A stretch of DNA of 53,069 bases. It comes from Gemmatimonadota bacterium (GTDB lineage Bacteria; Gemmatimonadota; Gemmatimonadetes; Gemmatimonadales; GWC2-71-9). A program made the translations under genes and the position numbers. The first letter of the stretch is position 1; each line of letters begins with the position of its first letter. The notes beneath the pieces are model-generated. The model ran no database searches. It worked only from the letters and a program-made list of their open reading frames with translations, and was not told where the DNA came from. Positions 395 through 5,377 of this stretch are shown here, one piece after another. The stretch covers positions 1-53,069 of the forward strand of contig JAZDCY010000053.1 of NCBI GenBank assembly GCA_036679645.1. Direction: 5' to 3'.

Positions 395-451
395 CCCCAC
401 CGCCTTTCAAGGCGGGCCGCGCGCAGCGCGCCGAGCCGGGGCTTCAGCCCC
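395..451 (+). repeat. REP-like unit A, copy 1 (57 bp, two hairpins)
   Basis: Identical to 1216-1272. Contains hairpins CCGCCT-TTCA-AGGCGG and GGGGC-TTCA-GCCCC. Confidence 0.9.
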
Positions 452-469
452 GGAACACTCGTGTAGCCA

Positions 470-585
470 CGTCCCGCTCCCGCCGGTCTGCGGACCCGCG
501 CTCCCGCGTCCCCGCTGCTCCGCGACCTCGCGCTCCCACTGCTCCGCGACCCCGCTGCTCCCGTTGCTCCCGCTGCTCCACGACC
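470..585 (+). repeat. Degenerate ~9-bp tandem tract (CCGCTGCTC/GCTCCCGCT-like)
   Basis: Repeated gctcccg/ctgctcc units between REP units A1 and B1. Confidence 0.6.
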
Positions 586-619
586 ACACACCGTTAGCCC
601 ATCGACGTCGCCGTCGCAA

Positions 620-670
620 TTCGCGCGTTGAAACGCGCGCTCGGCGCTACGCGGCGCGCCATACAGGCGC
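620..670 (-). repeat. REP-like unit B, copy 1 (51 bp)
   Basis: Matches 1159-1209 with 2 mismatches. Minus strand contains GTAG-CGCCGAG-CGCGCGT-TTCA-ACGCGCG. Confidence 0.9.
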
Positions 671-745
671 GGTCTGCGATGAAAGGCGCCACCGACAGGT
701 GAGAACGGTGAAAGCACTCCGCGCTCACCGTGGCATGTTGGCAGC

Positions 746-1138
746 GTGACCAGCTCCCTCTTCCTCCACCTCACGTGGGCCACGCTTGAACGGCGTCCCA
801 TGATCGGCGCGCCTGTGGCCGAGTTCTTGGAACGGTTTCTCCCAGCGGAGGCGCGACGGCACGGTGCGCAGGTGATCGCACTCGGGGTCGTCTCGGATCA
901 CGTGCACCTCTTGCTGCGAGTCCCGGGCCGATTCGACATCCCCCGTCTGATGCAGGGCCTGAAGGGTGCCAGCGCGCGGGTTGCCAATCGGGATGGGGTC
1001 GGCGTCGTGGGACTCCGTTGGGCCCGCGGGTACGACGCCCGATCCGTCGGTCCACGACGGCTGTCCGCAGTGGCGTCATATATTCGCGAGCAAGCTAGGC
1101 GGCATCCCGACCGGGTGCCTCGGGGTTCGACGTATTGA
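746..1138 (+). mobile_element. tnpA: IS200/IS605-family (Y1 HUH) transposase TnpA, REP-associated
   Basis: LFLHLTWAT N-terminus, HUH motif DHVHLL, LKGAS, RWARGY, catalytic YIREQ (YxxxQ). 130 aa; no tnpB nearby. Confidence 0.88.
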
Positions 1139-1158
1139 GGCAAGTCTAGTCACGCGGG

Positions 1159-1209
1159 TTCGCGCGTTGAAACGCGCGCTCGGCGCTACGCGACGCGCCA
1201 TGCAGGCGC
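1159..1209 (-). repeat. REP-like unit B, copy 2
   Basis: Near-identical to 620-670; starts 20 bp after the tnpA stop. Confidence 0.9.
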
Positions 1210-1215
1210 TTCCCC

Positions 1216-1272
1216 CCCCACCGCCTTTCAAGGCGGGCCGCGCGCAGCGCGCCGAGCCGGGGCTTCAGCCCC
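1216..1272 (+). repeat. REP-like unit A, copy 2
   Basis: Identical to 395-451. Confidence 0.9.
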
Positions 1273-1315
1273 TGCCCATACTTCGCAACAGTCCGGGGCC
1301 CTTAGCTCAGCTGGT
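1273..1315 (+). repeat. Duplicated -10 box, leader and 5' end of tRNA-Ile2 (att-like direct repeat)
   Basis: tgcccatacttcgcaacagtccggggcccttagctcagctggt versus 2980-3020 tgcccatacttcacaacagtttgggcccttagctcagtggt. GGGCCCTTAGCTCAG at 1296-1310 is identical to 3002-3016. Confidence 0.85.
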
Positions 1316-1450
1316 GATTGAATCTTGGTCCACGAGGGTGGCCGCCAACTCGGCGACTACTGCGAAGGCCCGATGCAGGTCGAATTCGGCAGAGTCCCGT
1401 GCTCGTAACACCGCGTGCAGTTGTTCGGGTCGTGCAAGTTGACGTTTCAT
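1307..1450 (-). CDS. Small hypothetical protein (47 aa, MKRQLARPEQ...)
   Basis: ATG-to-TGA ORF read by hand; it stops inside the tRNA fragment. No recognised motif. Confidence 0.3.
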   Translation of the reverse strand: MKRQLARPEQLHAVLRARDSAEFDLHRAFAVVAELAATLVDQDSITS

Positions 1451-1518
1451 GCTTGTATGCTCATTGTCTCAAATTGCCTGCCAAGCAATCATGGCGAAAT
1501 AGAATACCATCTCGTGAG

Positions 1519-1647
1519 ATGATTATGGCTCCCCCCGCGGGAAGGGTGGCAAGCAAAGGCGAGAGCGCACGGAGCGACACGCTCACTCCTGAGCGTCGGG
1601 CCGAGATTGCTCGGGAGGCGGCTGAATACCGGTGGAAGAACTCGTAG
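1519..1647 (+). CDS. Small basic protein with an 'AR...LTPERRAEIAREAA..RW' motif (mobile-element-associated, P63C N-terminal-like)
   Basis: Resembles the GGxARAxxLTPExRxEIARxAAxxRW motif. Overlaps the Fic 3' end convergently. Confidence 0.5.
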   Translation: MIMAPPAGRVASKGESARSDTLTPERRAEIAREAAEYRWKNS

Positions 1648-2833
1648 GAATAACGCCGGTTGTGAACACCGACGTCCCGCTGGCCGTGACCGTTGGCATC
1701 GACGGCTTGGAGGTTTTTGTCTCCTCGAACGGATCATGAATCGCCCGGGGTTCAAGCCCCCGCTTCCGTTCGTCCAGTAGCTTCTTGCTCGCCACATAGT
1801 ACCGGCCCCGCTTTTCCCCCTTCGCGTCAAGCAGTGCTGCTTCCACAAGTGCCCTGAGATCCAGACTTGCCACCTGCTCGCTCACATCAGCGACGGGACG
1901 GTAGGTACTGTTTCGCACCTTGAACCCGGCGGCGGCATCCCACAGGGCCAATGCCGTTCGCTCCGGCAATCCATCATGCGTCACCAGTTCCTCGAAAATG
2001 GTCATTAGTCGTTCTGATTCCCGGGCCCGGCGCAGCAGCGTTTGGGCTTGGAAGCTATGGGCGCGGAGACAGAACCGGATCCACGCATGTGCATCGTTCT
2101 CCGGATGCCAGCTTCCACTGCCCGTGTCGGCCAGAATGTCGTAATACGCCCGATGGCTGTTTCCGAGATACTCCTCGATGCTGGAAAAAGGAGGCTCGAG
2201 GGTTCCGGCGCGACTGAGAACCAGCGTCTGTAAGCAACGGGCCATGCGTCCGTTCCCGTCTGAGAAAGGATGAATCATGACGAGGTTCAGGTGCGCCATG
2301 GCAGCACCCACAAGCTCTGGTGTGTCGCCCGGTGTGGCTAATTGGTCCACGAGTTCGTCCATGAGATCGGGAACCATAACGAAGTAAGGACCCTCGTAGA
2401 CCCGCTGTCCTTTGTCTTCGTCAACAACGAAGACGGCCCCCGGACGCCACAGACCGGGGTTCTTGTCGAGATCGTATTCCAGCATGATGAAGTGCAGGGC
2501 CTTAATGACCCCGGCGGACCATTGAAAATGTTGATCGCGAGACAACCCAAGCACATGCGTCATGGCCCGCCGGTATGTCCCGGTTGCTAGGCGTGTCGCT
2601 TCGTTCGCCTCGACGGCTTCACCCTGCGCCGCCGCCACCACATCGTCCTTGGCGATCTGGTATCCCTCAATGCTGTTGGAGCCCCGAATGACCCGCCCGA
2701 GCGTGCTTCGCCGCAGGAGACCGGTCCACCGCCGTGGTACACGCAGCAGATGGCGAAGGTTGTCCCGCGCCTCGTCAATCTGGGCGATGACCTCATGGTC
2801 CTTTCGGCTCATCTTCGGAGTGGTGTAGAGCAT
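1583..2833 (-). CDS. Fic family protein (AMPylase-like) with probable C-terminal winged HTH
   Basis: Canonical HPFSDGNGRMAR motif, SNSIEG N-terminal motif, C-terminal DLRALVEAALLDAKGEKRGRYY. Confidence 0.92.
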   Translation of the reverse strand: MLYTTPKMSRKDHEVIAQIDEARDNLRHLLRVPRRWTGLLRRSTLGRVIRGSNSIEGYQIAKDDVVAAAQGEAVEANEATRLATGTYRRAMTHVLGLSRDQHFQWSAGVIKALHFIMLEYDLDKNPGLWRPGAVFVVDEDKGQRVYEGPYFVMVPDLMDELVDQLATPGDTPELVGAAMAHLNLVMIHPFSDGNGRMARCLQTLVLSRAGTLEPPFSSIEEYLGNSHRAYYDILADTGSGSWHPENDAHAWIRFCLRAHSFQAQTLLRRARESERLMTIFEELVTHDGLPERTALALWDAAAGFKVRNSTYRPVADVSEQVASLDLRALVEAALLDAKGEKRGRYYVASKKLLDERKRGLEPRAIHDPFEETKTSKPSMPTVTASGTSVFTTGVIPTSSSTGIQPPPEQSRPDAQE

Positions 2834-2960
2834 GGAAATACAGTTACTTTCCCAAAGCAGTGATACAGTTAATATCTATATTTCCATGCCGATGTAAAGC
2901 TACCTCAGGACGACGGCGGCGGGCGCGTCCCCACTGTTGGCCCACAGTCAGGATTTCAAG

Positions 2961-2989
2961 TTGAATTGGGGTGCAGCCATGCCCATACT
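2961..2989 (+). promoter_or_regulatory. Sigma70-type promoter of tRNA-Ile2
   Basis: TTGAAT-17 bp-CATACT, 12 bp upstream of the tRNA. Confidence 0.7.
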
Positions 2990-3001
2990 TCACAACAGTT
3001 T

Positions 3002-3074
3002 GGGCCCTTAGCTCAGTGGTTAGAGCAGCGGACTCATAATCCGTCGGTCGTAGGTTCAAATCCTACAGGGCCCA
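3002..3074 (+). tRNA. tRNA-Ile2 (CAT, lysidine type); elongator Met less likely
   Basis: Cloverleaf: acceptor GGGCCCT/AGGGCCC, anticodon loop CTCATAA, T-loop GTTCAAATC. C4-G69 and C5-G68 pairs and overall resemblance to ileX. CCA is not encoded. Confidence 0.9.
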
Positions 3075-3127: not shown

Positions 3128-3161
3128 TCGCGCCTTAGCCCCGCCAGCGGCTAAGGCGCGA
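3128..3161. terminator. Strong hairpin downstream of tRNA-Ile2
   Basis: 13-bp perfect inverted repeat TCGCGCCTTAGCC/GGCTAAGGCGCGA; no U-tract. Confidence 0.45.
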
Positions 3162-3260
3162 TCATCGGGTCAAAGCCTACTGGGCTCTCCGTAGCATTGG
3201 TATTCCCCCGCTTTCGCGGACGCTTCCGAACAGGTTCATATTGGGTCAGGAGATGTGCGA

Positions 3261-4349
3261 ATGGCCAAACCCGAGAAACGAACGATAGCGCTTGCACTGA
3301 GCAGCGCGTTGGTCGCCTTCCTCGCCGCCGAAGTAGTGCTTCGTGTGCAACCATGGGTGGATCTCGATGTCGACTATGCTGGGCGGCTGTCCGAGCGGCT
3401 GCACCATGATGAAGACAGGATCGAGGTCGAGCGGTACGGAACGTGTTCGGATGGGTCGCCGCCGTTTCGATTGCTTGCGCTCGGCGACTCGTGGATGGCC
3501 GAGGGAACCATGATCGAGACGATTGCGCGGGAGGCCGCCGACGTGGGATGCACCGAGGTGTGCAACGGAGGGACGGTCTCCTATGCGCCGTCGCTCTACT
3601 TGCTCAAGGGCCGGCAGCTACGAGAGCGCTGCTCGCCTGACCTGATCGTTGTGAACATCGATGCAACCGATGTGGCAGATGAGTGGTACCGCTACCGGAT
3701 ACCGCAGGTCCGCGACCGAACCGGCCGACTAGTTGCCATCCCCATGAGCCACGACGCCCACGATCTGGCTTTCTGGAACGGCATCGCCGCCGCCCACTCG
3801 GGTCCTTCCTACGTTTGGCGCGCCGTCAAGAAGACGTACCATTTGTATGTGTTCATGCCAAAGCTGCGTCAGGTCATAGGACGAGGGGTAATGGACTACG
3901 AACGTTCGATGAGCATTCACCTGGCGACGACATTCACGCCTCCGCAACGCGAGCAGCTGGCGTACTTCTCGGGTGTTTTGACGGAGATGACGAAGGGCCT
4001 CGGCGAGCTCGTCGGCGAGCAGAGACGGGTCGTGGTGACGTACCATCCGCATTTCTTGGGCGCCTCGCGGGACCCCGCGCGCAACCGGTACAACGACGCA
4101 CTGTCCGAACTCCTTCGAGAGGTGGCGGCCGCTACGGGAGTGACACTCGTCGACTGCACTGGCCAGGTCGAGCGCATCCAAGGGGAGGACTACGGCCCGG
4201 CGTTCCAGTGGCCGGACGATCCGTTCTCACACCTGACGGAGGCGGGATACCGTGCCTACGGCGCCTTCGTTGCCCAGACCGTGGTCCCGATCGTCCGTCA
4301 TATGCTCGACGATGGGGAGGACGCCGGTCGTTTCGAATCACCGGGCTGA
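3261..4349 (+). CDS. Membrane-anchored SGNH/GDSL hydrolase family protein
   Basis: N-terminal TM ending AEVVLR, block I LALGDSW, C-terminal SHLTEAGY. Confidence 0.75.
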   Translation: MAKPEKRTIALALSSALVAFLAAEVVLRVQPWVDLDVDYAGRLSERLHHDEDRIEVERYGTCSDGSPPFRLLALGDSWMAEGTMIETIAREAADVGCTEVCNGGTVSYAPSLYLLKGRQLRERCSPDLIVVNIDATDVADEWYRYRIPQVRDRTGRLVAIPMSHDAHDLAFWNGIAAAHSGPSYVWRAVKKTYHLYVFMPKLRQVIGRGVMDYERSMSIHLATTFTPPQREQLAYFSGVLTEMTKGLGELVGEQRRVVVTYHPHFLGASRDPARNRYNDALSELLREVAAATGVTLVDCTGQVERIQGEDYGPAFQWPDDPFSHLTEAGYRAYGAFVAQTVVPIVRHMLDDGEDAGRFESPG

Positions 4350-4763: not shown

Positions 4764-4854
4764 GAGCACCGAGCACCGAGCACCGAGCACCGAGCACCGA
4801 GCACCGAGCACCGAGCACCTGAGCACCTGAGCACCTGAGCGTCTATGCGTCTGT
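4764..4854 (+). repeat. Tandem repeat: (GAGCACC)x8 then CTGAGCAC/CTGAGCGT octamers
   Basis: Read directly; ends a few bp before tRNA-Val. Confidence 0.95.
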
Positions 4855-4945: not shown

Positions 4946-4982
4946 CAAAGCCCCGCAGAGCGTGCCACTCCGCGGGGCTTTG
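4946..4982. terminator. Intrinsic, possibly bidirectional, terminator
   Basis: CAAAGCCCCGC...GCGGGGCTTTG stem between tRNA-Val and the convergent small ORFs. Confidence 0.7.
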
Positions 4983-5009
4983 CGGTTACGGAAGGACGGA
5001 GATCGGTGG

Positions 5010-5231
5010 CTAGGGCTGAACGGCTATCGCGCCGCTCGACTTGCGGGTCCTGCGTTTGCCGAGGAGCACGAGCCCCCCTCCCCCACCCGTCGCGGAGAAG
5101 GCGAGAATGTCCCAATCATCGGGGGGGTCCGTCAACGCGCTCGGCTCTGCGGGGGGTTCCCCGGCGTTGAGCGCCCTGACGGCGAGGCGTTCGTAGTGAT
5201 CCAACCGGATAATGGGCCTGATGTCGCTCAT
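5010..5231 (-). CDS. Hypothetical protein (73 aa, MSDIRPIIRLDHY...)
   Basis: ATG overlaps the upstream XRE stop (ATGA), preceded by GGAG. Confidence 0.5.
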   Translation of the reverse strand: MSDIRPIIRLDHYERLAVRALNAGEPPAEPSALTDPPDDWDILAFSATGGGGGLVLLGKRRTRKSSGAIAVQP

Positions 5232-5377
5232 GTCTTGCTCTCCACGATGAGGTAGCTGGCCGGACATTCCAGCGCCTTGGCAATCTTCTCGAGCGTTGCG
5301 AAGTCGACGCCCGTCGTCTGGCTAGTCTCGAGCTTGCCGAGCGTCGATTGTGCGATGCCGGTGCGCCGGGTCAACAC
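5228..5377 (-). pseudogene. XRE/Cro-C1 HTH regulator, N-terminally truncated
   Basis: LTRRTGIAQSTLGKLETSQTTGVDFATLEKIAKALECPASYL is a typical XRE helix 2-5 pattern. An in-frame TAG lies immediately upstream. Confidence 0.75.

Follow-up and report, generated by a model that had tools for sequence, protein, structure and literature searches.

How did 1.7 kb of DNA carrying a Fic-domain gene come to lie between two copies of the start of a tRNA gene that has one intact copy in the assembly? The question is raised by a contig from a Gemmatimonadota bacterium, JAZDCY010000053.1 (positions 1 to 53,069), and the whole of this 53,069-nt stretch is referred to below as the window. The features relevant to the answer lie near its left end, where the interval between the two copies is called the islet.

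746..1138, plus strand: IS200/IS605-type Y1 transposase gene, a neighbour outside the islet (profile match)
1159..1272, plus strand: REP-like double-hairpin unit (B+A), one of a repeat family spread over the genome, also a neighbour (repeat comparison)
1273..1295, plus strand: left promoter-like copy, with the -10 hexamer CATACT (1277-1282) and leader; its -35 is absent from the window and present in the contig of run X1
1296..1315, plus strand: first 20 nt of tRNA-Ile2 as a displaced 5' fragment that stops in the D-loop, likely a trimmed attL
1307..1450, minus strand: 47-codon ORF with its stop inside the tRNA fragment, possibly a truncated gene or a non-gene (ORF list)
1525..1647, plus strand: 40-codon basic ORF, a truncated or short form matching the C-terminal half of a protein of ~80 aa
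1583..2833, minus strand: Fic-domain gene, 416 aa, with an intact HPFSDGNGRMAR motif, cargo (Pfam PF02661)
2930..2948, plus strand: direct repeat CCCAC(A/T)GT x2, period 11 (12 in relatives), likely an arm-type site (regex, sole match in the 4.05-Mb genome)
2961..3001, plus strand: element-type promoter-like region, TTGAAT-17-CATACT and leader, predicted from sequence to drive the tRNA
3002..3074, plus strand: intact tRNA-Ile2(CAT), present once in the assembly, presumed attR

The repeat pair and its cargo

An earlier note on this DNA had placed a two-copy repeat at 1273-1315 and 2980-3020, and both positions agree with the sequence. The copies share an exact 15-mer (1296-1310 and 3002-3016) and their leaders are 84% alike over 31 nt. 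Overall, they match each other with a BLAST E of about 2e-7 in the 4.05-Mb genome, and the leader match alone scored higher than every one of 300 base-shuffled versions of the 5.8 kb around it. The right copy belongs to a full CAT tRNA recognised by ARAGORN, preceded by TTGAAT-17-CATACT (hexamers at 2961-2989), as the same note had read it. This tRNA is Ile2 by elimination among the three CAT tRNAs of the genome, the other two of which we take to be initiator and elongator Met from their identity features. The left copy does break off in the D-loop, its end falling after 1315, and its D-loop has one C more than that of the intact gene. The G+C content of the islet (0.55-0.62) is below that of the genome (0.64), but as the region to the right is similar, base composition adds little.

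The Fic gene and two micro-ORFs reported between the copies were confirmed by ORF calls and Pfam. The N-terminal region of Fic carries SNSIEG, presumably the Fic auto-inhibitory motif. Fic is not vertically conserved: homologues (E <= 1e-40) are patchily distributed, occurring in 9 of 401 family genomes, this one included, and none of the other eight copies has a tRNA in the flanks fetched, which extend up to about 6 kb on each side. The ~80-aa counterpart of the small basic ORF is convergent with Fic in three of eight Fic relatives, and in two of these three (G640 and G073) an IS1-like transposase gene diverges from it. Since the pair recurs, twice beside such a transposase, it appears to be mobile cargo. 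The minus-strand micro-ORF had no Pfam family, no relative among the fetched loci and only low-overlap matches in the atlas. A 544-nt contig from a second study, which differs by 38 substitutions and 30 gap letters, connects the 5' part of Fic with the start of the tRNA; the linkage between Fic and the tRNA therefore exists in another organism. Upstream of Fic, ATACAGTTA occurs twice (2836-2870), and the same motif precedes the two closest Fic relatives (L110 and L111). This pair could be a putative autoregulatory operator.

The left junction

In the window, the left copy directly follows the REP unit, and the earlier note had concluded that it lost its -35 there. Contig data speak against this. 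Run X1, which holds a fraction of 0.97 of the sampled words and may be the sample of origin, yielded one contig covering 1273-3046 with 0 differences at a depth of 89.5. This contig does not join 1272 directly: after the end of the REP unit it has 37 other letters plus GGAAC (42 beyond the window), among which TTGAAA stands exactly 17 nt before the CATACT of the left copy. Considering these 42 extra letters and the -35 they contain, the junction at 1272/1273 is probably an assembly error. A minority deletion allele may nevertheless be present in the population, as contigs drop rare variants. With the X1 letters in place, inspection shows the two promoter regions agreeing at about three-quarters of the positions between the -35 and the start of the tRNA. 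Runs X2 and X3 gave only short pieces of the islet.

Another contig of the same assembly (C38) ends at exactly the REP base where the REP of the window meets the left copy, which also points to an assembly break. Its depth (97.6) matches that of the window, it carries the genes that flank tRNA-Ile2 in G002, G010 and G161, and the B+A repeat unit has about twice the single-copy depth. The true order is likely to be C38 flank, REP, transposase, REP and left promoter. In run X1, depth is 3.6-7 over positions 1-400 of the window, which hold a piece of a CopC-like gene, compared with about 90 for the rest; the start of the contig is therefore likely chimeric and joined via a REP unit. What looks like REP-caused loss of a promoter can thus be an assembly error.

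Several features of this neighbourhood were recorded in their own right. The Y1 transposase, which passes the cut-off of the IS200/IS605 model but not that of the RAYT model, lies between B/A hairpin units (window 395-1272 and the first 385 nt of L109, on C38), and B+A units in the assembly outnumber what read depth supports. Further along C38 (L109:359-3189), a cassette of PqqD-like, kinase-like and nucleotidyltransferase (PF14907) genes stands between a DUF2279-like gene and the REP unit. It is absent at the empty site of G002 and is possibly cargo of an earlier insertion.

The right-hand end and an integrase family

The hexamers at 2961-2989 have 8 of 12 consensus letters, and for this reason were not listed by a promoter scan. 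In G001, a genome of the same genus, the region upstream of tRNA-Ile2 is 90% identical to window 2922-3074. That region can in turn be aligned, at 71% over 205 nt, to the terminal part of an intact integrase gene of the family described below, on another G001 contig. The alignment spans the last codons of the integrase, the repeat and the same type of promoter, which in that place precedes a degenerate Lys-like 5' half. The right-hand end of the islet matches the same intact element end directly (72% over 74 nt). Considering that both Ile2 ends match the end of an intact integrase gene, the right-hand promoter belongs to the element, and its position and conservation suggest that it likely drives the restored tRNA.

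The last 23 nt before the tRNA were also compared. Here, the right copy agrees with the left at 19 positions, with the Ile2 site of G001 at 21, with the Lys half of G001 at 17 and with empty sites at 12 and 10. The left copy agrees with G001 at 17 positions and with empty sites at 13 and 11. As the left leader resembles the element type and is unlike the empty sites, an earlier insertion of the same family, and hence stacked insertions, is a somewhat better explanation of the left promoter than a single insertion into a native one.

The integrases concerned, defined here from L059, are referred to as Gemmatimonadales CCCAC(A/T)GT-repeat integrases (PF00589). In G326, a 363-aa tyrosine integrase gene ends 78 nt before tRNA-Ile2, and its relatives (E <= 1e-30) occur in 32 of 401 family genomes. 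Thirty integrase loci were compared: 20 face the 3' end of a tRNA, four have a full tRNA downstream in the same direction, two have a downstream 5' half and four have no tRNA. The tRNAs targeted are Ile2, Lys, Leu, Phe, Met and Sec (L076-L105 and L121), and the family uses both orientations, including both at tRNA-Ile2. A quick tree, in which four rows were under half filled, grouped the G001 integrase with three other 5'-class members (SH-aLRT 89). Orientation changes five times in this tree, and at least two changes are forced by starred branches.

Many loci of the family have the CCCAC(A/T)GT direct repeat just past the integrase stop codon. The window has its repeat 53 nt before tRNA-Ile2, and the family, as defined here, has the repeat between the integrase end and the tRNA. 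Its position and conservation make it a likely, although putative, arm-type site. A scan of 401 genomes with the repeat pattern proved too narrow, as it missed known period-12 cases and returned matches at about the level of the reversed control; its matches were left out of the argument.

Neither an integrase nor a remnant was detected in the window, C50 or C38 with a profile of the 32 family proteins, and the absence of an integrase from the islet noted earlier therefore holds for the window and C38. The islet is accordingly assigned to the family from its DNA ends only. Its own genome (92.67% complete) had no relative at E <= 1e-30, and the best match to the profile was a weak generic recombinase (E 3e-12) on C51. 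The earlier suggestion that the element is either decayed or mobilised in trans stands in its first part; mobilisation in trans is unlikely because no family integrase was found in a 93%-complete genome. Viral contigs contained no relative of the family integrase. The tRNA 5'-half pattern was found at four loci in these contigs, one of them with a 5' half only.

Empty sites and parallel cases

Empty-site alleles exist at the level of species, in two other species. The DUF2279-like gene abuts tRNA-Ile2 in G002, and in G010 it lies under 1 kb from the tRNA, with no second copy. Its orthologue in the genome studied here is on C38, which ends in the same REP unit. We found no near-identical strain lacking just the 1.7 kb and, allowing up to 2 mismatches, no older 5' fragment beside the DUF2279-like gene on C38.

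The exact 15-mer is present in 164 of 401 phylum genomes and occurs twice in 10, this genome and G175 included. As the reversed-control 15-mer also matches about 19 times in the 401 genomes, two copies in a genome are not evidence alone, and only inspected pairs were used. These came from eight of the ten genomes, since our own was treated apart and G175 was counted only. Two of the eight have a 5' half ending at the anticodon loop and a full tRNA-Ile2 on one contig, 573 bp apart in the case of G161 and 5.6 kb apart, with no integrase seen, in G386. The half and the full gene are on separate contigs in G164, where an integrase gene lies beside the full gene, and in G336. G399 has a 5' half after an integrase gene, plus one degenerate copy, while the second copy of G326 runs off its contig. 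The last two (G140 and G384) have two full genes each, on separate contigs. Two tandem intact tRNA genes, which would speak for simple duplication, were found in none of the eight.

A scan of all GTDB species added L154: its neighbours are conserved, its 5' half is degenerate, and the 7 kb of cargo before an arm-like repeat and the full gene contain no family integrase. Records that share this architecture come from Gemmatimonadales or Gemmatimonadota. Among eight truncated Ile2 5' fragments from other records, seven reach the anticodon loop and stop there or just past it (G161, G386, G164, G336, G399, L154 and the viral L160). The eighth, the 14-nt fragment of G018, is a product of tandem duplication of a gene upstream. 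In G001 and G147, a search at up to 2 mismatches detected no left 5' fragment, and a pattern scan of metagenomes returned a single locus, a plain tRNA with no second copy. The duplication in G018 (L041), in which an outer-membrane gene unit ends 14 nt into tRNA-Ile2, represents a second route to short 5' fragments.

Proposed origin and alternatives

The reading that we favour, and consider quite probable, is that the islet is a decayed, integrase-less remnant of a tyrosine-integrase island that recombined in the anticodon loop of tRNA-Ile2 in the 5'-fragment orientation, leaving the tRNA on an element promoter. The circular element would have had an attachment region in the order integrase, arm repeat, promoter and tRNA 5' half. 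Recombination with the resident gene would leave the old promoter and 5' half behind on the left and rebuild a full tRNA on the right. The integrase gene would then have been lost, while the arm repeat at 2930-2948 and the Fic cargo remained. A deletion would have shortened the 5' half on the left, originally of about 40 nt, to 20 nt, taking the crossover region with it. Without that region in the left half, the element would have no way left to excise precisely, and the right-hand promoter would be fixed in place. From the ends and the relatives we infer that crossover took place in the anticodon loop, that the promoter functions, that the integrase was lost later and that a deletion did the trimming. 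Some features count against an origin as an island: the repeat of the window has a period of 11 instead of 12, no left arm site remains, and the 20-nt fragment is shorter than in all island cases seen.

The earlier note had proposed that an element inserted in the 5' part of the tRNA and supplied a replacement promoter and 5' end. This was right in outline, as the displaced 5' piece and the element-borne promoter stand, but the D-loop does not hold as the insertion point. A crossover in the D-loop, at a sub-site outside the three usual bacterial ones and with the left copy as an untrimmed attL, is in our view unlikely. The left copy does end cleanly in the D-loop, and archaeal att sites can extend over this loop, with pTN3-type cuts that may border it, according to the sections of PMC8371274 on these integrases. 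However, the only comparable fragment that stops short of the anticodon loop is the product of gene duplication in G018, and the D-loop break is therefore probably a later deletion. Likewise, a one-base indel separates the copies four bases before the break, where they have no 7-bp identical overlap. Integrase crossover generally needs such an overlap. The position of the 47-codon ORF stop inside the tRNA fragment also fits a deletion.

We give an equally low probability to a local duplication of the promoter and tRNA start that later decayed, with Fic coming in independently afterwards, for example on an IS1-like transposon. The 14-nt tRNA start of G018 shows that tandem duplication can produce such a fragment, and Fic may have travelled separately, given that its pair with the small ORF adjoins IS1-like transposase genes in G640 and G073. 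Nevertheless, repeat and genome comparison found nothing else duplicated around the two copies, flanks included, and no tandem intact pair was present in the inspected two-copy genomes. The islet contains no IS1-like transposase gene, and a local duplication leaves the arm repeat and the integrase-linked promoter unexplained. Still less probable is mobilisation by the adjacent HUH (Y1) transposase, which had been named as a candidate and which we rejected. Its REP unit abuts the left copy in the window, but that abutment is probably the assembly error described above. On both sides the transposase gene has hairpin repeats of its own, copies of which are found at many further sites of the genome, and no REP-type hairpin is found at the right end of the islet. 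One other fetched locus had a homologue, about 8 kb from its tRNA, and islet relatives with the same ends have no Y1 gene (G001 and L154). Moreover, Y1 transposases are not known to duplicate their targets. Finally, we see scarcely any chance that assembly created the left copy. Other faults of assembly do affect the first 1.3 kb of the contig, but a single X1 contig spans both copies without a difference, and these are too different from each other for a collapsed repeat.

Beyond the remnant of a tyrosine-integrase island that we favour, a wider scenario is put forward tentatively, as its chances fall slightly below even. One Gemmatimonadales integrase family would flip between both orientations at tRNA genes and, in this lineage, would have given the single tRNA-Ile2 gene a new promoter two or more times. 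The deletion at the left site would have fixed the last of these promoters, leaving an essential gene on a domesticated mobile-element promoter.

Other features around the tRNA genes

The region to the right of the islet has further marks of insertion. Window 3128-3190 holds a hairpin and, behind it, a degenerate copy of the 3' end of tRNA-Ile2, some 95 nt downstream; comparable echoes of the 3' end are seen after tRNA-Ile2 in G001, G002, G019 and G161. Between tRNA-Ile2 and tRNA-Val the window has an SGNH/GDSL-like gene (3255-4349); in G001, G010, G012 and G021 the distance between the two tRNAs is 50-300 nt. This gene is another insertion at the tRNA-Ile2 hotspot. After tRNA-Val, a hairpin and an HTH fragment are found at 4946-5377, and because G001 has an integrase-like ORF at the same place, the fragment is probably the remnant of a 3'-class island. 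A tandem repeat of heptamers and octamers (GAGCACC) stands before tRNA-Val at 4764-4840, and unrelated heptamer runs flank these tRNAs in several relatives.

Relation to known systems

The account of the Islander catalogue gives 159 of 3,919 islands with a 5' fragment (PMC4383910). Recombination at the 5' side is described as considerably less frequent in PMC6563490, where Zhao and Williams 2002 is cited; the same work is in the references of PMC1635311. The islet resembles these islands in that a 5' fragment lies upstream of a full tRNA gene in the same orientation (1296-1315 and 3002-3074) with foreign cargo between them, and its relatives carry a tyrosine integrase gene next to the restored tRNA. 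It differs in having no integrase, which Islander requires, and in its length of 1.7 kb, below the operational 2-200 kb range of that catalogue (PMC4383910). Its fragment of 20 nt has no anticodon loop, and both of its promoters appear to be of the element type. Islander expects a crossover in the anticodon loop or T-arm with a block of identity reaching it; the fragment here ends in the D-loop, and seven of the eight fragments in other records extend to the anticodon loop. The islet works like a member of the 5'-fragment islands in the form of a decayed remnant and is not a member that Islander could catalogue.

The pTN3-like integrases of Thermococcales are a further parallel. As PMC8371274 describes them in its treatment of tRNA sites, they use the tRNA gene's 5' half as attB and the rebuilt tRNA is expressed from a promoter of the element, an arrangement seldom seen in bacteria. 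They are archaeal and suicidal, their gene being split by integration, whereas in the family described here the integrase gene remains in one piece, with its end ahead of the arm repeat and promoter. REP/RAYT and IS200/IS605 Y1 elements fit the neighbour at 746-1272 and have no mechanistic link to the islet ends.

The islet is thus a decayed new example of a known and rare island class, whose 5' polarity was already catalogued. We found no description of such islands in Gemmatimonadota in a literature search that covered few subscription papers. As an example of this rare insertion polarity, the islet points to a mobile element that would have taken over the transcription of a normally essential tRNA. 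Remnants of this kind escape island finders that require an integrase, and an integrase family with both orientations offers a usable system for how an attachment region reverses.
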